A stretch of DNA of 34,548 bases from contig JBJTJS010000267.1 of NCBI GenBank assembly GCA_046096085.1, positions 1 through 34,548 of the forward strand. The letters run 5' to 3'. A program made the position numbers and the translations under genes. The notes under the pieces are model-generated. The model was not told where the DNA came from. It did no database searches and saw nothing but the letters and a program-made list of their open reading frames with translations. This DNA is from a bacterium. GTDB taxonomy: Bacteria > Actinomycetota > Actinomycetes > S36-B12. Shown piece by piece: positions 1 through 29,620 of this stretch (positions within the stretch are counted from its first letter, which is position 1; every line of letters starts with the position of its first letter).

Positions 1-806
1 GCTCCTCGAGCAACGACCTCGACATGTTCGCCGTCGTCGAGGCGCACGCCGTGGCCGAGCACCGGGCCGAGGCCGAGGAGGCCGGCAGAGTCGAGGGCGC
101 CCACGGGACGCAGCCCGGTGGAGGCCACGGTGTCGGCGTTCTCCCGGTCGTTCTCCGACGCGTGCGTGTGCACGAGCGCGGACTGCGCGCGTGCGAGGTC
201 CGCGATCTCGCGCAGGTGGTCGATGCCGACGGTGAACGCAGCGTGCGGCATAAGCGCGGGCGGCACGTGGGGGCCGCCGAGTGCGGCGAGCGTCGCCGGC
301 CAGTCGCGCGCAAGGGCCATCCGCTCCTCCCAGGCCAGGCCGTCCGGGCCGGGGAAGGAGAAGAACACCGGCCCGGTGACGTGCCGGAGCCCCACCTCGA
401 CCGCGGCACGGTGCGCATCGGCGGGGTGGAAGTACATGTCGAGCGCCGTCGTGGTGCCCGACATCACCGCCTCGAGGGCGCCGAGACGCGCTCCGACGTA
501 GACCCCGCGGGGATCCATGAGGCGGGCCTCCTCGGCCCACACGCGCTCGAGGAACCCCTGCAGGTCGACGTCCTCGGCGACGCCGCGCAGCAGCGCCATC
601 GGCAGGTGCGTGTGCAGGTTGACGAGGCCCGGCATGACGAGCGCATCACGGCCATCGATGACCTCCCGGGCGTCCTTGTCCAGGCCCGGCCCCACGTCCT
701 CGATGCGCCCGTCGTCGATGGCGATGGAGACGTCCTCGAGCATGCCGCCGTGCTCGTCGGTCATGACGGCGTAGCGCGCATCGCGAATGAGCAGGTCGAC
801 GGTCAC
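1..806 (-). CDS. Amidohydrolase-family deaminase, 5'-methylthioadenosine/SAH deaminase (MtaD)-like; partial, 3' end lies beyond the left window edge
   Basis: Absent from the ORF track because it has no stop in the window. My own minus-strand translation from GTG (804-806) reads VTVDLLIRDARYAVMTDEHGGMLEDVSIAIDDGRIEDVGPGLDKDAREVIDGRDALVMPGLVNLHTHLPMALLRG...ALVHTHASEND... with no stops down to position 1. The HxH metal motif (NLHTH) and overall pattern fit chlorohydrolase/MtaD-type amidohydrolases. GTGA overlap with the mtnP stop (803-805). Confidence 0.7.
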   Translation of the reverse strand, partial: MTVDLLIRDARYAVMTDEHGGMLEDVSIAIDDGRIEDVGPGLDKDAREVIDGRDALVMPGLVNLHTHLPMALLRGVAEDVDLQGFLERVWAEEARLMDPRGVYVGARLGALEAVMSGTTTALDMYFHPADAHRAAVEVGLRHVTGPVFFSFPGPDGLAWEERMALARDWPATLAALGGPHVPPALMPHAAFTVGIDHLREIADLARAQSALVHTHASENDRENADTVASTGLRPVGALDSAGLLGLGPVLGHGVRLDDGEHVEVVARG

Positions 807-1561
807 GGCGATTCCGCGGCTTCCGCGAGCCTCTGGGCGGCGCGGTCGAGGATCGCGGTCACCTTCTCGGCACCCTGCGCGATCACGGCCAGGACATCGT
901 CGACGGTGATGGGCTCGCTGCCCAGGCCGGCCGCGGGGTTCGCCACGAGGCACAGGCTGGCGTAGGGGATGCCGCGCTCGACGGCGAGCACGACCTCGGG
1001 CAGTCCCGTCATGCCCACGACGGTGGCCCCGGCTGCGGCGGCCATGCGGATCTCCGCCTTCGACTCGAAGCGCGGGCCGTCGAAGGCGGCGTAGACGCCG
1101 TGCGGCGTGACGGCCACCCCGACATCGGCCGCGGCGGCGAGCCACGCCTGGCGCAGTCGCTCGTCGTACGGCGCGCTCACGTCGACGTGGACGACGCCCT
1201 CGGGCGTGCTGCCGTCGTGGAAGGTCCCGATGCGCTGGTGGGTGTAGTCGATGAAGTCGTCGACCACCACGATCTCCCCCGCCTCGTGGCCGATTCCCCC
1301 GACCACGTTGACGGCGAGGATCTCCGTGGCGCCCAGGTCGGCTAGTGCCTGGATGAGGGCGCGGTAGTTGACCATGTGGGGCGGGACCGAGTGCTCGGTC
1401 CCGTGGCGTGGCACGAAGTGCGCGGGACGCCCGTGCAGGGTGCCCGACGTGACCTGGGCGGGGCCGTACGCCGTCTCCACGACCCGCGTCACGGGGTCGG
1501 CGAGGAGGTCCAGCCGCGTGAATCCGGTGCCGGCGATGATGCCGAGCGCACCCCGGCTCAT
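803..1561 (-). CDS. mtnP: S-methyl-5'-thioadenosine / 5'-methylthioinosine phosphorylase (PNP/MTAP family), 252 aa
   Basis: C-terminal 252 aa of ORF 803..2173: MSRGALGIIAGTGF...HFVPRHGTEHSVPPHMVNYRALI...DDFIDYT...GPRFESKAEI...VGMTGLPEVVLAVERGIPYASLCLVANPAAG. This is the typical MTAP/PNP trimeric family pattern. The upstream part of the ORF is Arg/Pro-rich out-of-frame overlap with mtnD. ATG at 1559-1561 overlaps the mtnD stop (ATGA). Confidence 0.85.
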   Translation of the reverse strand: MSRGALGIIAGTGFTRLDLLADPVTRVVETAYGPAQVTSGTLHGRPAHFVPRHGTEHSVPPHMVNYRALIQALADLGATEILAVNVVGGIGHEAGEIVVVDDFIDYTHQRIGTFHDGSTPEGVVHVDVSAPYDERLRQAWLAAAADVGVAVTPHGVYAAFDGPRFESKAEIRMAAAAGATVVGMTGLPEVVLAVERGIPYASLCLVANPAAGLGSEPITVDDVLAVIAQGAEKVTAILDRAAQRLAEAAESP

Positions 1562-2145
1562 GTCGAACTGAGCGCGACCAGGGACAGCTCGTCGAAGGTG
1601 GGGAACCGGGTGGAGATGTCGCTGCCGGTGAAGGTCCCGACCCACCCGTCCTCGTCCTGGAAGAAGCGCACCGCGATGAAGTCGGGCGCATCGCCCATGT
1701 CGAACCAGTGCGTGGTGAGCGCCGGGACGCTCAGCAGGTCGCCCGCCGTGCACAGCATCGCGTGCACCCGGTCGCGCATGTGGAGGTAGAAGACTCCGGA
1801 TCCCGCCACGAAGTAGCGGATCTCCTCCTCGTCGTGCGTGTGCTCGTTGAGGAACTTCGCGCGGGCCGCTGCCGCGTTGGCGCGCCACTCGTCGGAGTCG
1901 ACCGGATGCAATTGGACGACGTCGACGAGCCGGTATCCGTGCTCGGCGACGAGCCGGTCCACGAGCGGGCCGTGGGCCTCCAGCACCTCGTCCTGAGTCG
2001 GGGCCGGAACCTGCGGCGGCGCGGCGGGGACGTGCTCGTAGACGACGCCGAGCGGGGCGAGGGTGTCCGCGATGACGTCGCGGTCCGACGTCTGGAGTAC
2101 GGGGGCGTCGGGGCGGTCGTCGTCCCAGACCGTGAGCAGGGTCAT
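1558..2145 (-). CDS. mtnD: Acireductone dioxygenase (ARD, cupin), 195 aa
   Basis: C-terminal 195 aa of ORF 1558..2823: MTLLTVWDDDRPD...KFLNEHTHDEEEIRYFVAGSGVFYLH...HWFDMG, with the ARD cupin metal motif HxHxxxE. AGGAGG lies 6 nt upstream of ATG 2143-2145. Confidence 0.85.
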   Translation of the reverse strand: MTLLTVWDDDRPDAPVLQTSDRDVIADTLAPLGVVYEHVPAAPPQVPAPTQDEVLEAHGPLVDRLVAEHGYRLVDVVQLHPVDSDEWRANAAAARAKFLNEHTHDEEEIRYFVAGSGVFYLHMRDRVHAMLCTAGDLLSVPALTTHWFDMGDAPDFIAVRFFQDEDGWVGTFTGSDISTRFPTFDELSLVALSST

Positions 2146-2219
2146 GGCTCCTCCTGAGGGCTGCTGGGCACATTGTGGCCCAGCGCGGCCCTGCCGGCCC
2201 CGGGAGCCCGCCCGCGCGG

Positions 2220-2807
2220 TCAGCGCCGAAGGGCGTCGACGCGCAGGGCGTACTCGCACAGCCAGTCGAGGCTCTCGGTGCGCGCGACCGCCTCGTCGAG
2301 GTCGCTGCCCCAGGCGTACAGCCCGTGGCCGGCGACGATCACGCCGGGCACGCCCGCATCGAGCGCCCCGAGGACGCGGTCGGAGAGCTCCGCCATGTCC
2401 TGGGAGTTTGCGACAACGGGGACGGTGACGCGGTCGCCGTCGGCCGCGCGCCCGATGCCCTTGAGCTGCTCCACGTCGACCAGGGTGACCCCCGCCGGCC
2501 AGCGCGCGGCGGCGACCACCACCGAGAGCGCGTGCACGTGCACTGCGGCGCTGGCGCCCGTCGCGGCGATGACGGCGCCATGCACCCGCGCCTCCGCGCT
2601 GGGCCGGTGCGGCTGGCCGGGCAGCGCCTCTCCCCGCAGGGTGGTGCGCACCGTGTGCGTCGCGTCGAGCGCGGCCTTGTCGACCCCGGAGGCGGTGACG
2701 AGCATGTCGTCGCCGTCGCGCAGCGACACGTTGCCCGACGTCCCGCGCATCCAGCCCAGGACGAACAGGCGCTGCGACGTGAGCGCGAGCTGCTGCTCCG
2801 CGGACAT
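2220..2807 (-). CDS. mtnB: Methylthioribulose-1-phosphate dehydratase (class II aldolase/adducin fold), 195 aa
   Basis: MSAEQQLALTSQRLFVLGWMRGTSGNVSLR...PSAEARVHGAV...AVHVHAL...IVAGHGLYAWG, matching MtnB/class II aldolase motifs. GGGAGG SD lies 5 nt upstream of ATG 2805-2807. Sits in a methionine-salvage context. Confidence 0.8.
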   Translation of the reverse strand: MSAEQQLALTSQRLFVLGWMRGTSGNVSLRDGDDMLVTASGVDKAALDATHTVRTTLRGEALPGQPHRPSAEARVHGAVIAATGASAAVHVHALSVVVAAARWPAGVTLVDVEQLKGIGRAADGDRVTVPVVANSQDMAELSDRVLGALDAGVPGVIVAGHGLYAWGSDLDEAVARTESLDWLCEYALRVDALRR

Positions 2808-2808
2808 G

Positions 2809-2814
2809 TAGCCT
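2809..2814 (+). promoter_or_regulatory. Candidate -10 hexamer TAGCCT, 7 nt upstream of the mtnC ATG (possible leaderless mRNA)
   Basis: TAGCCT fits the actinobacterial TANNNT -10 pattern. It is followed by a 7-nt spacer (cccggcc) and then ATG 2822. No SD is present, and the intergenic gap to mtnB is only 14 bp. Confidence 0.35.
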
Positions 2815-2821
2815 CCCGGCC

Positions 2822-3550
2822 ATGACAGTAGCGGAGGCGTCGTTCCGCGACGTGGCTCATATCGTGGTCGACATCGAGGGGACCACGAGCCGGTCGACGT
2901 ACGTCTACGACGTCCTCTTCCCCTACGCGACGGTGCGCTTCGACGAGTGGCTCGCCGCGCACGCGGACGATCCCGCGGTGCGCGAGATCGTGGATCAGGT
3001 GGGCGCCGAGATCGGCGTCGTCGATCCCACCCGCGAGGAGGTCGTGCTCGCGCTGACCGAATGGGTGGCGCAGGACCGCAAGATCACCCCGCTCAAGACG
3101 CTCCAGGGCCTCATCTGGCAGGAGGGCTTCGACAGCGGGGAGCTGGTGTCGGACTTCTATCCCGATGCCCTGGAGGCCCTCGCGGCCTGGCATGGATGCG
3201 GCCTGCCGATCTCGGTGTACTCCTCCGGTTCGGTCCTCGCGCAGCGCAACTGGTACGCGCACTCGCCCGCGGGCGACCTGACCCCGTGGATCAGCGGGTA
3301 CTACGACACGGCGAACGCCGGCCCCAAGCGCGAGGCGGCCTCCTACGCCGGCATCGCCGCCGCCATCGGCGCCGATGCTGCGACGCTGCTGTTCTGCTCC
3401 GATGTCGTCGCTGAGCTCGACGCCGCGCGCGAGGCCGGCTGGCAGGCGGTGCGGGTGCGCCGGCCCGGGGAGTCGCATGCGGCCGAGGATGCCGGGGATT
3501 CGGCGTGCCCCGAGGTGGCCTCGATGACCGACATCGCGCTCACCCCCTGA
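2822..3550 (+). CDS. mtnC: Enolase-phosphatase E1 (HAD superfamily), 242 aa
   Basis: MTVAEASFRDVAHIVVDIEGTT (HAD motif I DxxGTT), KITPLKTLQGLIWQEGF (MtnC signature), VYSSGS, FCSDVVAELDAA. There is no SD upstream of ATG 2822. An alternative GTG at 2852 is possible. Confidence 0.85.
   Translation: MTVAEASFRDVAHIVVDIEGTTSRSTYVYDVLFPYATVRFDEWLAAHADDPAVREIVDQVGAEIGVVDPTREEVVLALTEWVAQDRKITPLKTLQGLIWQEGFDSGELVSDFYPDALEALAAWHGCGLPISVYSSGSVLAQRNWYAHSPAGDLTPWISGYYDTANAGPKREAASYAGIAAAIGADAATLLFCSDVVAELDAAREAGWQAVRVRRPGESHAAEDAGDSACPEVASMTDIALTP
2825..2830 (-). promoter_or_regulatory. Candidate -10 hexamer TACTGT for mtnB, lying inside mtnC codons 2-3
   Basis: The minus strand reads TACTGT-catggcc-GGGAGGctacATG, so a transcription start about 7 nt downstream would give a short leader that starts at the SD. 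Pattern match only. Confidence 0.2.
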
Positions 3551-4836: not shown

Positions 4837-4914
4837 TGACCCCCGCCCCGAATATCGCCTTCGCAAGGGTTACGGGGTCGCGTCCCCCTTGCGAAGGCGA
4901 TGTTTCGGCGGTGG
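4837..4914. repeat. Copy B (intact) of the ~80-bp intergenic repeat element
   Basis: See copy A. This copy contains a perfect 16-bp inverted repeat. It fills the gap between the pseudogene stop (4825-4827) and the convergent aldolase/SDR stop (4916-4918). Confidence 0.75.
4854..4901. terminator. Strong hairpin within repeat copy B; possible bidirectional terminator between convergent genes
   Basis: atcgccttcgcaaggg (4854-4869) is the exact reverse complement of cccttgcgaaggcgat (4886-4901), with a 16-nt loop. It is followed by gttt on the plus strand. There is no long U-tract, so terminator function is inferred. Confidence 0.4.
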
Positions 4915-4915
4915 G

Positions 4916-6877
4916 TCAGCGGGGGAAGGCGCCCGCGACCCCGCCGTCGACGGGGATCACCGCACCGGTGGTGCGCGAGGACGCGTCGGAGAGCAGGAAC
5001 GCCACCGACGCGGCCACATCGGCCGTTGTCACGCGCCGCTTGAGGATGTTGCGGGCGGCGTAGAAGTCCTCGAGCTCATGCGGTGCGATGCCGTGGGCCG
5101 CAGCCCGCTCCTCGCGCAGTCCGTCGTCCCACAGCCGCGAGTTGTCGAACACCGCGTCGGGATTGACCGCGTTGGCGCGAATGCCGACCGGCCCGCCCTC
5201 CAGGGCGGCGATGCGCATGAGCTGCACCATGCCGGCCTTCGACACCGAGTACGCACCGAATCCCGCCCCGGGACCGAACGCGTTCTTGCTGGCGACGTAC
5301 ACCAGCGACCCGCCGGCACCCTGCTCGCGCATGGCATGCATCGACTCGCGGGTGAGCAGGAACCCCGACGTCAGGTTGATGCGCTGCGCGCGCTCCCACT
5401 GCTCCAGGGTGAGGTCCTCGAGCGTGCCCGTGACGCCGATGCCGGCATTCACGACGATCCCGTCGAGGCCGCCGTACGCACGCACGGCCGCGCGCACGGT
5501 GGCCCGCACCGCCGACTCGTCCGACTGGTCGCCCACGACGGTCTCCGGCACCGGGCCGACCCGGGCGACCTCCGCCGCACAGGCCTCGACCCCTGCGCCG
5601 TCGAGATCGGCCAGGACGAGCGAGGCGCCGAGGCGACCGAGCTCGAGGGCGATGCCGCGGCCGATCCCGGACGCCGCGCCCGTCACGATCGCCACGAAGC
5701 CGGCGAGCGGCGCCGGCGGGGGCTTCAACGTGAGCTTGTACAGCTCCATCGGCCAGTAGTCGAACTCGAACGTGTCGACCTCGCCCAGCGGCTCGGGGAC
5801 GCCGAACGCGTCGATCACGTCCGCCGCGACCGAGTGCGTGTGCAGGGCGATGTCGGCGAGGACGCGCGCCTCGCTCGCCGACGCTCCCGAGGTGACCGCT
5901 CCCAGGCCCGGCACGAGCATGACGCGCGGCAGCGGATCGTGGGCACCGAACCCCTCGGGCATCAGGTCTGAGTGGCGGGCGACGTACGCCTCGTAGTCCG
6001 CGGCGTAGGCGTCCACGCGCGCGGTGGCATCGTCGGCCGAGCGAACGACGACGGACCGCGGCCTGATGCGCAGCATATGGTCGGCGCTGGAGACACCGCC
6101 CGCCACGATGTCGTCCACGCGTGCATGGTCGGCCACCGCCTTCAGCCGCTCGTCGATGCGCAGCACCCGGCGGCCGAGTCGTCCGCGCAGGCGCAGGAGG
6201 AGCCGCTCGATCTCGTCGTCGGCAAGGTCGGCGTGCACGGGCGGCGGCCCAGCGGCGATCCGGTGGGCGGCCACGTAGTCGCGGGCCACGTCGACGGTGC
6301 GCCGGGTCGCATCCCAGCACTCGTCGGTGGTGCTGCCCCAGGTGACGAGTCCGTGGTGGGCGAGGACGACCCCGTCGTAGTCGGCCAGGTCGCCGACGAT
6401 GCGGCTCAGCTCGAATCCCGGCCGGATCCAGTCGACATAGGCGAATCGGTCGCCGAGGGCCTCGGCGGTCACGCGCCGACCCTCGGCGTGGTTGGTGAGC
6501 GCGCAGATGGCGTCCGCGTGCACGTGGTCGATGTGCGCGAAGGGGAGGAAGGCGTGCAGGAGCGTCTCGATCGACGGGCGGCGCGAGCCCGGGTCGATCA
6601 GCGCGCGGGCGACCAGGTCGGTCATCTCCTCATCGGACATCGCATCGAAGCCCCGCAGTGCCTCGAGCTCCTCCAGGCGCAGGCCCGGGTAGTCGGCGGC
6701 GACCGAGCCGCGCAGGTCGGCGCCGGAGCCCTTGACCCACATGACGCGCTGCTCGCGCCCCAGGTGGTCGACGACGACGCCCTTCGCCGACGTGTTGCCG
6801 CCGCCGTAGACCACCAGCGACGGGTCGTCGCCGATGCGGTTCGACCGTGCGACGAGTTCGTCCAGGGGCGCTGTCAT
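4916..6877 (-). CDS. Bifunctional class II aldolase / short-chain dehydrogenase-reductase fusion (RhaD_aldol-ADH / RhaEW-like family), 653 aa
   Basis: N-terminal domain: VVYGGGNTSAKG, HAFLPFAHIDHVHADA, VLAHHGLVTWG (class II aldolase Zn/His pattern). C-terminal domain: AIVTGAASGIGRGIA (TGxxxGxG), VVNAGIG (NAG), AYSVSKAG (YxxxK). ATG 6875-6877 is 1 nt after the mtnA stop. Confidence 0.85.
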   Translation of the reverse strand: MTAPLDELVARSNRIGDDPSLVVYGGGNTSAKGVVVDHLGREQRVMWVKGSGADLRGSVAADYPGLRLEELEALRGFDAMSDEEMTDLVARALIDPGSRRPSIETLLHAFLPFAHIDHVHADAICALTNHAEGRRVTAEALGDRFAYVDWIRPGFELSRIVGDLADYDGVVLAHHGLVTWGSTTDECWDATRRTVDVARDYVAAHRIAAGPPPVHADLADDEIERLLLRLRGRLGRRVLRIDERLKAVADHARVDDIVAGGVSSADHMLRIRPRSVVVRSADDATARVDAYAADYEAYVARHSDLMPEGFGAHDPLPRVMLVPGLGAVTSGASASEARVLADIALHTHSVAADVIDAFGVPEPLGEVDTFEFDYWPMELYKLTLKPPPAPLAGFVAIVTGAASGIGRGIALELGRLGASLVLADLDGAGVEACAAEVARVGPVPETVVGDQSDESAVRATVRAAVRAYGGLDGIVVNAGIGVTGTLEDLTLEQWERAQRINLTSGFLLTRESMHAMREQGAGGSLVYVASKNAFGPGAGFGAYSVSKAGMVQLMRIAALEGGPVGIRANAVNPDAVFDNSRLWDDGLREERAAAHGIAPHELEDFYAARNILKRRVTTADVAASVAFLLSDASSRTTGAVIPVDGGVAGAFPR

Positions 6878-6878
6878 G

Positions 6879-7934
6879 TCACCCGCCCACCAGGGCGGTC
6901 ACGGCAGCCACCCCGTCGGGTTCCACCACCGCCCGCTCGGTGACGATGGCCGAGACGTACCGCGCGGGCGTCACGTCGAACGCAGGGTTGAAGCCCGCGG
7001 TGCCCCCCGGCGTGACGCAGGAGCCGGCGTACGACGTCACCTCCGCGCCATCGCGCAGCTCGATCTCGATGCGCGACCCGTCCGAGGTCGACATGTCGAC
7101 CGTCGAGGACGGCGCTGCCACGACGAAGGGGACCCCCGCGGCATCGCAGGCGAGGGCCACGCCGACCGAGCCGATCTTGTTGGCCGTGTCGCCGTTGCGC
7201 GCGATGCGGTCGGCCCCGATGATCGCGACGTCGACGAGGCCGCGCAGGATCGTCGACGCCGCGGCCCCATCGGCCTGCACCACGTGCGGAATGCCCAGTC
7301 GCGCGCACTCCCATGCGGTGAGCCTCGCCCCCTGCAAGAGCGGCCGGGTCTCGTCCGCGTACACGAGCTCCAGATCGCCGCACTCGAAGATCTCGCGGAC
7401 GATGCCGAACGCCGTCCCCCAGCCCGTCGTCGCCAGCGCCCCGGTGTTGCAGTGCGTGAGGATCCGCAGCGGCCGGCGCCCGACCCGGGCCAGGATCCAA
7501 TCGGCACCGCGACGCGACAGTTCCCGGTTGGCCGCGGTGTCCTCCGCGACGATCTGCGCGGCCTCGGCCAGCACGGCGTCGACGCCGTCCGAGGTGCGGG
7601 GGCGGACCCGGTCCACTCCCCAGGCGAGGTTCACCGCCGTGGGCCGCGCGTCGCGAATGCGCAGGATCTCGCCGTCGAGGCGCTCGGCGTCCCAGCCCTC
7701 GGCCTCGGACTGCAGGAGGGCGACGGCCACGCCGTAGGCGCCCACGGCCCCGAGGGCGGGCGCCCCCCTGACCACCAGCCTGCGCACGCAGTCCACGACG
7801 GCGTCGACGGTCCGGCACTCGACGTAGGCCTCCCGCGCGGGCAGGAGCGTCTGGTCGAGGAGGACGAGCGCGCCATCGCGCCACTGCACCGCGCGCACCT
7901 CGTCGCGGAGGTCACGGGACATCGACGGCGACAT
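6879..7934 (-). CDS. mtnA: S-methyl-5-thioribose-1-phosphate isomerase (eIF-2B alpha/beta/delta-like family), 351 aa
   Basis: VQWRDGALVLLDQTLLP, VRGAPALGA, RPTAVNL, ILTHCNTGALATTGWGTA, ADETRPLLQGARLTAWE, GADRIARNGDTANKIG, NPAFDVTP. These are classic MtnA motifs. ATG 7932-7934 is 2 nt after the mutase stop. An alternative ATG lies at 7922. Confidence 0.9.
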   Translation of the reverse strand: MSPSMSRDLRDEVRAVQWRDGALVLLDQTLLPAREAYVECRTVDAVVDCVRRLVVRGAPALGAVGAYGVAVALLQSEAEGWDAERLDGEILRIRDARPTAVNLAWGVDRVRPRTSDGVDAVLAEAAQIVAEDTAANRELSRRGADWILARVGRRPLRILTHCNTGALATTGWGTAFGIVREIFECGDLELVYADETRPLLQGARLTAWECARLGIPHVVQADGAAASTILRGLVDVAIIGADRIARNGDTANKIGSVGVALACDAAGVPFVVAAPSSTVDMSTSDGSRIEIELRDGAEVTSYAGSCVTPGGTAGFNPAFDVTPARYVSAIVTERAVVEPDGVAAVTALVGG

Positions 7935-7936
7935 CG

Positions 7937-9511
<1,575 letters not shown>

Positions 9512-9554
9512 GGTGAGCCTCCCGGAGCGAACGCGCGGCGAGCGCCGCACCCGC

Positions 9555-9560
9555 AGCCTA
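9555..9560 (-). promoter_or_regulatory. Candidate -10 hexamer TAGGCT upstream of the mutase large subunit, inside a motif shared with the mutase small-subunit upstream region
   Basis: The minus strand reads CGCCCTAGGCTG-c-GGGTGCG, 43 nt upstream of ATG 9511. The same 12-mer and the GGGTGCG block recur at 29543-29564. Confidence 0.3.
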
Positions 9561-9677
9561 GGGCGCGGTCCCCGCCCCGGGGGCGCGACCTCGCTCACCC
9601 CGTCCTGCCGAGACCCCCCGCCCGCACTACGATGAGGGGCACACCGCTGTGTTCGCAGCGTCGCGAGAGGAGGCACC

Positions 9678-10073
9678 GTGGCAACCACGCCCGTGGGCAC
9701 CCTGTACCGGGGTGGCGAGGGCATGTGGTCCTGGGTGGCGCAGCGGATCACCGGCATCGCGGTGTTCTTCTTCCTCTACGTCCACGTGCTCGACACGGCC
9801 CTCGTCCGGGTCTCCCCGGAGGCCTATGACCTCGTGATCGCGACCTACAAGACGCCGATCGTCAACCTCCTCGAGGTCGGCCTGGTCGGCGCCGTGCTCT
9901 ACCACGCGCTCAACGGCCTTCGGGTCATCGCGGTGGACTTCTGGTCGCGCGGCCCGCGCTACCAGCGGCAGATGCTGTGGGGCATCGTCGCGGTGTGGGT
10001 CCTCGTGATGGTCCCGGGGACGTACTTCATGCTCAAGCACACCGTCGAGGCACTCCTCGGGGCCACCCCATGA
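9678..10073 (+). CDS. sdhC: Succinate dehydrogenase cytochrome b subunit, 131 aa
   Basis: The hydrophobic 3-TM pattern ([23 protein letters not shown]...[11 protein letters not shown]) is typical of actinobacterial SdhC. GTG start with a GAGAGGAGG SD upstream. First gene of sdhCDAB. Confidence 0.8.
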
Positions 10074-29090: not shown

Positions 29091-29495
29091 TCAGGTGCGC
29101 GCGGGGACGACGTGGGCGCCCACCCAGTCCACGATGTCCTGCATCGGGGTGCCGGGCCCGAACACGCGGGCGACCCCGATGCGGGTGAGTTCCGGGATGT
29201 CGCCCTCGGGGATGATGCCGCCCCCGAACACGACCACGTCCTCAGCGCCGCGGGACCGCAGTTCGGCCATGAGCTCGGGGAAGAGCACGAGGTGCGCCCC
29301 CGACAGGATGGAGACGCCGATCGCGTCCGCGTCCTCCTGGACGGCGGTCTCGGCGATCTGCGCGGGCGTCTGGTGCAGGCCCGTGTAGATGACCTCCATG
29401 CCGGCATCGCGCAGGGCACGGGCCACGACCTTGGCCCCCCGGTCGTGGCCGTCGAGGCCCGGCTTGGCGACGACGACGCGGATCGGACTCGACAC
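29091..29495 (-). CDS. Cobalamin (B12)-binding small subunit of a split acyl-CoA mutase, 134 aa
   Basis: [36 protein letters not shown] (DxHxxG base-off/His-on motif), SILSGAH, GGGIIP. The GTG at 29493-29495 has GGAGGAGG 5 nt upstream. The upstream in-frame ATG 29552 and GTG 29603 lack an SD. Confidence 0.85.
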
Positions 29496-29553
29496 CGGCA
29501 CCTCCTCCGCTCTGCCCCGGATTCTCGCGCTCCCGGCTTCGTGCGCACCCATC

Positions 29554-29559
29554 AGCCTA
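29554..29559 (-). promoter_or_regulatory. Candidate -10 hexamer TAGGCT upstream of the B12-binding subunit, within the motif shared with the large-subunit upstream region
   Basis: The minus strand reads CGCCCTAGGCTG-at-GGGTGCG, 58 nt upstream of GTG 29495. Confidence 0.3.
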
Positions 29560-29620
29560 GGGCGAGGCGACCCCGCACAGGCGAGGTGCCGACTCGCCGA
29601 CATTCGCCCGCCCCGTCGGT

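Follow-up and report, generated by a model that had tools for sequence, protein, structure and literature searches.

An aldolase-dehydrogenase fusion coupled to mtnA in uncultured actinobacteria: a candidate enzyme of a DHAP-shunt-type nucleoside salvage

Introduction

5'-Methylthioadenosine (MTA) as well as 5'-deoxyadenosine arise inevitably as inhibitory side products of polyamine synthesis and of radical S-adenosylmethionine enzymes. In the dihydroxyacetone phosphate (DHAP) shunt of Rhodospirillum rubrum and extraintestinal pathogenic Escherichia coli, MtnP, or MtnN together with MtnK, is followed by MtnA and the aldolase Ald2 (PMC10986504, PMC12632272). Bacillus thuringiensis salvages 5-deoxyribose through DrdK, DrdI and DrdA, and for the stand-alone DrdA it was already noted that aldolase genes can reside inside methionine-salvage clusters, with which they share the isomerase (PMC6079011). 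As far as it is summarised in PMC6302742, the fluoroacetate pathway of Streptomyces cattleya comprises a 5'-fluoro-5'-deoxyadenosine phosphorylase, an MtnA-like isomerase, a fuculose-1-phosphate-type aldolase and a fluoroacetaldehyde dehydrogenase. RhaEW, or YuxG (TIGR02632), is a bifunctional enzyme that combines L-rhamnulose-1-phosphate aldolase with L-lactaldehyde dehydrogenase and that was characterised in Chloroflexus aurantiacus and Bacillus subtilis; it reduces NAD+ and is inactive with NADH, and its aldolase step depends on the pull of the dehydrogenase reaction (PMC3870299). Here we analyse a stretch of 34,548 nucleotides (nt), hereafter the window, which corresponds to positions 1 to 34,548 of contig JBJTJS010000267.1 (assembly GCA_046096085.1) from a member of the Actinomycetota (GTDB S36-B12). 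It encodes a RhaEW-like protein of 653 amino acids (aa), a fusion of a class II aldolase with a short-chain dehydrogenase/reductase (SDR), directly behind mtnA, the gene for S-methyl-5-thioribose-1-phosphate isomerase.

A previous interpretation of the same DNA (hereafter the sequence-only reading) had proposed that this fusion cleaves the MtnA product and thus opens a second fate for it beside MtnB, MtnC and MtnD. Based on comparative genomics, which is where its support comes from, the fusion seems best explained as the enzyme that would conclude a DHAP-shunt-type salvage of 5'-deoxynucleosides formed as by-products of S-adenosylmethionine. A shunt variant in which a RhaEW-type fusion replaces Ald2/DrdA is the best reading of our data. 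Within the searchable literature, a scope outside of which key subscription papers fall, no description of a RhaEW-type fusion coupled to mtnA was found.

Results

Association of the fusion with mtnA

A genome scan with one genome per species delivered 80 loci, whose surroundings were screened for Mtn, Rha and other proteins by tblastn. A gap in identity separates 15 loci with 53-74% identity to the fusion from the remainder with 43% or less. The high-identity group together with loci from exact-protein look-ups constitutes the clade genome loci, while 65 scan loci and two plasmid references form the outside-clade set (n = 67). In 17 of the 19 evaluable clade genome loci mtnA is found immediately upstream on the same strand, whereas mtnA is missing within 10 kb of all 67 outside-clade homologues (Fisher p = 2e-16 for the genome set, uncorrected for shared ancestry). 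A metagenome scan with the query P0122 added 67 further loci, nearly all of the mtnA-linked clade and none of them a close relative of P0122 itself; where at least 1 kb of upstream sequence was available, mtnA is located upstream in 34 of 38. Both sets taken together, 51 of 57 evaluable clade loci have mtnA as their immediate upstream neighbour in the same orientation. Thus the adjacency, which the sequence-only reading knew from a single genome, extends far beyond it: the mtnA-paired clade spans 53-100% identity to the fusion, a GC content of 37-72% and at least four different gene neighbourhoods.

The surroundings of the outside-clade homologues are of a different kind. Genes for rhamnose isomerase, kinase, mutarotase or transport (rhaI/rhaA, rhaB/rhaK, rhaM or rhaS) occur near 58 of the 67, while no rha gene was detected within 8-10 kb of about 60 clade loci. 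The window itself gave no tblastn match to RhaI (two types), RhaA, RhaB, RhaK, RhaM or RhaS over its 34.5 kb, as the sequence-only reading had stated.

Some loci deviate from the general picture. The mtnA gene of L022 (8924-9950) is present, yet split by a frameshift that is possibly a long-read assembly error. On the L024 contig, which has 37% GC, the fusion is part of a 956-aa ORF (43-2913, +) with approximately 300 aa of N-terminal tetratricopeptide (TPR) repeats and without mtnA upstream. The subgroup L122, L123, L125 and L127 (about 64% identity) has lost the adjacent mtnA; here, a GntR regulator is followed by the fusion, a gene for a TIM-barrel protein like class-I xylose isomerase, and a sugar ATP-binding cassette (ABC) transporter of the CUT1 type (e.g. 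L123, 880-11785). Two loci deposited as metagenome-assembled genomes of Rubrivirga sp. (L015, L017) carry an actinobacterial mtnA-fusion, RuBisCO-like and transketolase arrangement with 71-72% identity to the fusion and are probably mis-binned contigs.

Phylogeny and clade-specific residues

A neighbour-joining tree was calculated from 119 full-length sequences, comprising the loci and 50%-identity cluster representatives from a library-wide search; the representatives include intermediate sequences at 44-61% identity that come without genomic context. All mtnA-linked sequences fall into one clade, with a bootstrap support of 87/100 for its core and of 100/100 for its split from every rhamnose-context sequence. 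The possibility that orthologues of the fusion cluster with genuine rhamnose operons, which would have spoken against the sequence-only reading, is therefore not borne out by tree or gene neighbourhoods. Further clades branch between the mtnA-linked clade and the rhamnose-linked sequences. Three loci from such sister clades were sampled through a second homologue search (P0280 from Chloroflexota, P0335, and P0372 on a 3.3-Mb contig), and neither rha genes nor mtnA were found nearby; the gene stands alone among housekeeping genes. For the sister-clade loci L092, L093 and L094 (Chloroflexota and other Actinomycetota) these include priA, pyrG, the pyr operon, greA and secDF. As rha genes and mtnA are lacking there, a large part of the 'rhamnose' family is without an assigned role.

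At 34 positions the clade and the rhamnose-type enzymes are fixed for different residues. One of these is V119 (Thr in rhamnose-type enzymes), whose two neighbours, His118 and His120, are Zn ligands, and six others lie around the catalytic Tyr543 and Lys547 of the SDR domain (F540/A, S546/A, G549/A, M550/E, Q552/H and M554/A). Judged from the alignment, these differences would be in line with an altered substrate at both active sites. The orphan sister clades share several of the clade's SDR residue states.

Features of the fusion protein

The fusion consists of a class II aldolase domain (residues ~1-205), a family-specific middle domain (~206-390) and a classical SDR domain (~391-653). In Pfam, residues 9-199 match Aldolase_II (PF00596; 65.5 bits against a cut-off of 22.2) and residues 400-647 match adh_short_C2 (165 bits), and every motif listed by the sequence-only reading (YGGGNTSAKG, HIDHVHAD, AHHGLVTWG, TGAASGIGRG, NAG and YSVSK) is present in the ORF. 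With a GC content of 0.75, 0.50 and 0.93 at the three codon positions, a pattern that fits a genome of 72% GC, the ORF represents a real gene. In the aldolase domain N28, E104, H118, H120 and H175 are in register with E. coli FucA and RhaD and with MtnB of the window, and match the phosphate-binding (Asn), catalytic (Glu) and Zn-binding (three His) positions of FucA/RhaD. In the SDR domain TGAASGIG (399-406), D424, NAG (477-479), S530, Y543 and K547 do not vary within the family alignment; D424, which terminates strand 2, points to NAD over NADP as cofactor.

An AlphaFold model of the fusion (48 homologues) reached a pLDDT of 92 and a pTM of 0.90, and its SDR domain superposes on solved SDRs with template-modelling (TM) scores of 0.85-0.94. 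The fold search with the full-length model returned SDR structures alone, with no full-length solved homologue, and is uninformative on the aldolase pocket. By sequence, the only solved relative of the aldolase domain is the uncharacterised 3m4r_A.

The fusion aligns end to end with the RhaEW proteins of two rhamnose-locus references, Deinococcus (L006, 42% identity), which adjoins rhaI, rhaB, rhaM, rhaS and lutABC, and Neorhizobium (L007, 35%); to the rhamnose-linked homologues in general its identity is 35-43%. The top NCBIfam matches are all PRK08324/TIGR02632 'bifunctional aldolase/short-chain dehydrogenase' models, but every one falls below its curated cut-off (TIGR02632, 534.2 bits vs 567.75; NF006189, 478 vs 634; NF006190, 574 vs 1014). 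Relatives of the fusion bear the JGI name 'rhamnulose-1-phosphate aldolase/alcohol dehydrogenase'. Its aldolase domain alone shares 20% identity with E. coli FucA, 23% with E. coli RhaD and 26% with MtnB of the window. We thus regard it as RhaE-type and not as an Ald2/DrdA orthologue, the distinction from Ald2/DrdA being made by description only.

The mtnA junction and operon structure

As the sequence-only reading had pointed out, a single nucleotide separates the mtnA stop from the fusion start (...GGG TGA c ATG ACA...). Among 16 mtnA-fusion junctions, ten show a -4 overlap (ATGA/GTGA), two a -1 overlap, two a spacing of +1 (the window and L002) and two a spacing of +11 or +23, and hence 14 of the 16 are overlapping or spaced by 1 nt. 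Only 2 nt separate the mtnA start from the end of the preceding gene of the window, which encodes a methylmalonyl-CoA-mutase-family large subunit; L002, L005, L012, L013 and L019 have the same mutase-mtnA-fusion order. A consensus scan detected no terminator-like site between mutase, mtnA and fusion. Directly behind the fusion stop a hairpin is found whose folding energy (Table 1) corresponds to z = -7.4 against shuffles; it is likely the end of the operon, a terminator without U-tract. Given the tight junctions, the lack of terminator-like sites between the genes and the hairpin behind the last of them, co-transcription of mtnA and the fusion, on which the sequence-only reading depended, is likely. 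In the simplest reading, mutase, mtnA and fusion would form one transcript, with mtnA and fusion translationally coupled. A consensus sigma-70 promoter scan gave no match and is uninformative for an actinobacterium of 72% GC.

The mutase is probably the first gene of the mtnA-fusion operon. Adenosylcobalamin enzymes release 5'-deoxyadenosine, and the link between mutase and mtnA could be functional or mere gene order. The mutase gene lacks a B12 domain, and the sole gene of the window with a B12-binding domain (29091-29603, -) is 19 kb away from it.

Partners of the mtnA-fusion pair

While the mtnA-fusion pair is constant, its partners vary among the clade loci, and almost all of them appear, by sequence, specific to MTA or 5'-deoxyadenosine metabolism. 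Four settings were observed. In setting (i), which comprises the window, L002, L005, L012, L013 and L018, the pair occurs with mtnC and, divided from it, mtnB-mtnD-(cdd)-phosphorylase-amidohydrolase. Setting (ii), found in L019, L021, L023, L025 and many metagenome loci, combines the pair with a Bmp/PnrA-type nucleoside ABC transporter, a methylthioinosine (MTI)-type phosphorylase (NF006599, 249 bits vs 223), an MtaD/DadD-like amidohydrolase, a cytidine deaminase and a pyrimidine nucleoside phosphorylase. No mtnB, mtnC or mtnD was found within 10 kb in these loci. Setting (iii) starts with a GntR regulator, followed by mtnA-fusion-sugar ABC transporter-MtnK (L020, L022, L096, L130 and L140), and its kinase scores 366 bits against the MtnK model TIGR01767 (cut-off 275). 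Two such kinase-entry clusters extend over 4694-9580 in L020 and 12030-17093 in L022; in the latter a ribose-type sugar ABC transporter and MtnK lie downstream of the fusion. In settings (ii) and (iii) no aldolase-family gene other than the fusion is found near mtnA, and so both form a complete route from uptake to DHAP only if the fusion acts as the aldolase.

In setting (iv) a GntR regulator and the pair face, on the opposite strand, a 366-aa protein resembling ribulose-1,5-bisphosphate carboxylase/oxygenase (RuBisCO) and a split transketolase (L001, L014-L017, L095, L107 and L147). The closest solved relative of the RuBisCO-like protein is 3qfw_A (378 aa), with 226 bits. Together with the transketolase it may provide a second, as yet undescribed route for the MtnA product, for example to a xylulose-5-phosphate- or deoxyxylulose-5-phosphate-like compound. 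These neighbours (e.g. L001, 12006-16616; L020 is listed with them as well) are often joined by a xylulokinase and a ROK regulator.

The order of the entry reactions can be addressed in two loci. Both in the window (93-1564, -) and in L025 (2063-4097, -) the phosphorylase passes the methylthioinosine phosphorylase model alone and is followed by an MtaD/DadD-like amidohydrolase, and this suggests that MTA is deaminated before phosphorolysis, in the order of Pseudomonas aeruginosa.

Gene content of the window

The window has a GC content of 72%, and its nearest database relatives are uncultured Actinomycetota, several of which are labelled Candidatus Nanopelagicales. Real genes were told from antisense shadow ORFs by GC content at the three codon positions and by profile searches (Table 1). 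On the basis of codon-position GC and domain positions, genes were placed at 2220..2807, 1558..2148 and 803..1564, while the long ORFs 1558..2823 (-), 803..2173 (-), 2173..2811 (+) and 2175..2825 (+) were dismissed as over-extended or antisense shadows.

Table 1. Position and supporting evidence of the features identified in and around the mtnA-fusion locus.
Feature	Position	Strand	Evidence or remark
Partial amidohydrolase, MtaD/DadD type (MTA / 5'-deoxyadenosine deaminase)	~93..800	-	runs off window start
MTAP-family phosphorylase	803..1564	-	NF006599, 246 bits vs cut-off 223
mtnD (acireductone dioxygenase, ARD family)	1558..2148	-	Pfam ARD, 92.6 bits
mtnB (methylthioribulose-1-phosphate dehydratase)	2220..2807	-	TIGR03328, 142.7 bits vs 137.05
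mtnC (enolase-phosphatase / acireductone synthase)	2822..3550	+	TIGR01691, 222.8 bits vs 128.1
ORF of 367 aa	3567..4670	+	weak AbiEi_4 (antitoxin-like helix-turn-helix) match alone; between mtnC and fusion
Hairpin directly 3' of fusion stop	4853..4902	-	folding -45.4 kcal/mol
Aldolase-SDR fusion, 653 aa	4916..6877	-	Pfam Aldolase_II and adh_short_C2
mtnA (S-methyl-5-thioribose-1-phosphate isomerase)	6879..7934	-	TIGR00512, 386 bits vs 279
Methylmalonyl-CoA-mutase-family large subunit, without B12 domain	7937..9757	-	Pfam MM_CoA_mutase, 751 bits; TIGR00641, 773 bits
sdhCDAB	from 9678	+	gene map

The canonical methionine salvage core is completely encoded, as the sequence-only reading had assumed: MtnA, MtnB and MtnC each exceed the cut-off of their equivalog model, and MtnD is recognised as Pfam ARD. 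MtnB is the competing consumer of the MtnA product in the window. The phosphorylase and the partial amidohydrolase add to the genes named in the sequence-only reading. S-Methyl-5'-thioinosine phosphorylase (NF006599) is both the best match of the phosphorylase and the only one above cut-off, since TIGR01694 (MTAP) scores 237 bits, below its cut-off of 275. The partial amidohydrolase is 50% identical to that of L025 in tblastn, and the latter has PRK09045 and the 5'-deoxyadenosine deaminase model NF005557 as top NCBIfam matches, both below cut-off. The true start of the mutase is probably downstream of 9757, since the ORF as listed overlaps sdhC. In L002, a relative with 89% identity, mtnC and the fusion are just 93 nt apart, whereas in the window the 367-aa ORF is found between them and looks like an insertion. 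A recent horizontal transfer of the mtnA-fusion pair was considered and rejected on account of uniform GC content and skew over 4-8 kb and of a gene order common to relatives.

Discussion

The mtnA-coupled fusion is in several respects an unusual member of a protein family that is named after rhamnose catabolism. Based on its constant partner, its separate phylogenetic position and its surroundings, we consider it rather probable that the substrate of the fusion is the 5-methylthio or 5-deoxy form of the MtnA product and that its role is that of an aldolase/dehydrogenase of the DHAP-shunt type. The proposed route would start with the amidohydrolase, which would deaminate MTA and/or 5'-deoxyadenosine. 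The MTI-type phosphorylase would then yield 5-methylthio- or 5-deoxy-ribose-1-phosphate, while in some relatives MtnK would act on the imported free sugar instead. MtnA would convert this aldose-1-phosphate to the ketose-1-phosphate, which the Zn-type class II aldolase domain of the fusion, made from the same mRNA as MtnA, would cleave to DHAP and methylthioacetaldehyde or acetaldehyde. The SDR domain would finally remove the reactive aldehyde by NAD+-dependent oxidation to methylthioacetate or acetate. Oxidation is most likely the direction of this step and our default by analogy, since the characterised RhaEW reduces NAD+ and is inactive with NADH. While the first three steps rest on gene identities, we infer the two steps of the fusion, along with its substrate, its products, its redox direction and the split of flux between fusion and MtnB.

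In the window this route would run parallel to MtnB, MtnC and MtnD, which return methylthioribulose-1-phosphate to methionine. The idea of the sequence-only reading that the MtnA product would have two genetically linked fates holds for the window and its closest relatives, where mtnB, mtnC and mtnD are found alongside. That one fate might be O2-dependent and the other O2-independent is a purely conjectural refinement.

Several observations weigh against the proposed role. The clade loci are related to one another, and our counts consequently overstate the number of independent events. About 10% of them have no adjacent mtnA (the P0119 contig, L024 and L122/L123/L125/L127). To our knowledge, RhaW-type SDRs act on alpha-hydroxy aldehydes only, and both acetaldehyde and methylthioacetaldehyde are devoid of that hydroxyl group. 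The characterised family members cleave L-rhamnulose-1-phosphate, which has the 3R,4S configuration. In contrast, the candidate substrates, 5-deoxyribulose-1-phosphate among them, are 3R,4R, as is fuculose-1-phosphate (PMC6079011), and a change or a relaxation of C4 specificity must therefore be assumed. Finally, cytidine deaminase and pyrimidine nucleoside phosphorylase are encoded in many of the clusters, which makes general nucleoside catabolism a live alternative.

This alternative is the main rival, although we regard it as unlikely. It supposes that the pair serves ordinary nucleoside ribose: MtnA would form D-ribulose-1-phosphate from the ribose-1-phosphate that the phosphorylases yield, and the fusion would split it into DHAP and glycolaldehyde, the latter being oxidised to glycolate. 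In haloarchaea, the non-carboxylating pentose bisphosphate pathway contains a ribulose-1-phosphate aldolase step, of which such a route would be the bacterial counterpart. Many clade loci indeed resemble nucleoside-uptake clusters, in which the Bmp/PnrA-type ABC transporter and the two pyrimidine-related genes flank the pair, and a ribulose-1-phosphate aldolase exists within the class II family (NF053831; PMC9700705). Furthermore, glycolaldehyde is, like L-lactaldehyde, an alpha-hydroxy aldehyde and fits the known RhaW chemistry (PMC3870299), and MtnK and MtnA of B. subtilis were reported to accept ribose and ribose-1-phosphate, according to a citation in PMC6302742. However, the entry enzymes on the purine side are of the MTA type: the phosphorylase passes the methylthioinosine phosphorylase model only, the amidohydrolase resembles MTA and 5'-deoxyadenosine deaminases, and the kinase variant is an MtnK above the equivalog cut-off and not a ribokinase. 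In addition, the pair also occurs with mtnB, mtnC and mtnD and with the RuBisCO-like protein, both of which are tied to methylthioribulose-1-phosphate.

Two further explanations remain within sugar catabolism. The substrate could be another ketose-1-phosphate, such as a 6-deoxyhexulose or pentulose phosphate, with the mtnA link reflecting inherited gene order or shared regulation instead of a common metabolite. Sugar-related genes near some clade loci are in line with this idea, namely the xylulokinase and ROK regulator of L001, FucU-like mutarotase and FMN-dependent lactate-dehydrogenase-like genes (L001, L017), the xylose-isomerase-like gene and CUT1 transporter of L123, where mtnA is missing, and the GntR/UTRA regulator, typical of sugar operons, that is divergent from the pair in many loci. 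Yet these genes are inconsistent across the clade while mtnA is consistent, and the persistence of -4, -1 and +1 junctions over 37-72% GC and through rearranged neighbourhoods would scarcely be expected unless the pair itself is under selection; we thus hold this explanation to be quite improbable. It is more improbable still, to the point of being hardly credible, that the fusion is an ordinary RhaEW, i.e. an L-rhamnulose-1-phosphate aldolase / L-lactaldehyde dehydrogenase whose other rhamnose genes are encoded elsewhere. The same three-part architecture, the conserved catalytic residues, the PRK08324/TIGR02632 models as top matches and the JGI naming of relatives speak in favour of it. Against it stand the TIGR02632 score below cut-off, the separate clade with its 100/100 bootstrap split from rha-linked sequences and the complete lack of rha genes around the clade loci compared to their frequency outside the clade, while characterised RhaEW orthologues were reported to be always inside rha loci (PMC3870299).

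Returning to the DHAP-shunt-type role, the mtnA-coupled branch of the family most likely serves many uncultured aquatic actinobacteria in the disposal of waste nucleosides derived from S-adenosylmethionine, as far as gene content can tell. If true, actinobacteria that are abundant in freshwater and in the sea rely on a fused, non-orthologous enzyme for the key salvage step, and thousands of database entries named 'rhamnulose-1-phosphate aldolase/alcohol dehydrogenase' are mislabelled. A sugar-catabolic enzyme would then have been recruited into metabolite salvage with a changed stereochemical preference. The expected products, methylthioacetate or acetate besides DHAP, are unlike those of the known shunt and would matter for the sulfur and carbon balance of organisms reliant on reduced sulfur. 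One might even speculate that the whole non-rhamnose part of RhaEW, the mtnA-coupled clade and the orphan sister clades together, represents a widespread and unrecognised disposal enzyme for 5-deoxyribose and methylthioribose, which replaces Ald2/DrdA and releases methylthioacetate or acetate instead of alcohols, while many of these genomes would channel the MtnA product into an undescribed RuBisCO-like/split-transketolase route as well. We consider this wider scenario doubtful.

Like the characterised RhaEW, a family with proteins of about 650-700 aa, the fusion begins with a class II aldolase, continues with the middle domain and ends with an SDR, and the metal ligands, the catalytic Glu and the SDR Ser-Tyr-Lys are conserved. 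It differs in its identity of no more than 35-43%, its score below the equivalog cut-off, its separate clade, its coupling to mtnA with no occurrence in rha loci, its 34 clade-specific changes, which are partly located around both active sites, and an expected substrate with the opposite C4 configuration. With the DHAP shunt it has in common a clustered entry enzyme to the pentose-1-phosphate (the phosphorylase in the window, MtnK in L020 and L022), MtnA and an aldolase of the class II fold. However, Ald2 is a stand-alone FucA-like enzyme (EC 4.1.2.62), while here a RhaE-type domain is fused to a dehydrogenase. In the shunt a separate alcohol dehydrogenase reduces the aldehyde, whereas the fusion polypeptide would handle it itself, probably by oxidation, and the front end of the clade consists of a deaminase and an MTI-type phosphorylase. 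The kinase/isomerase/aldolase logic of DrdK, DrdI and DrdA is the same as well, but DrdA is a Mn-dependent, FucA-like single-domain enzyme, while the aldolase of the fusion belongs to another branch of the superfamily and has an SDR attached. As far as the summary of the S. cattleya fluoroacetate pathway goes, the chemical sequence on a 5-substituted ribose, including the oxidation of X-CH2-CHO to the acid, is shared, whereas the separate enzymes of other families, the secondary-metabolite context and the fluorine substituent are not. Taken together, the logic of the pathway is known from the DHAP shunt and from DrdK/I/A; what differs is the RhaE-branch aldolase, its fusion to the enzyme that handles the aldehyde, and the front end of deaminase and MTI-type phosphorylase.

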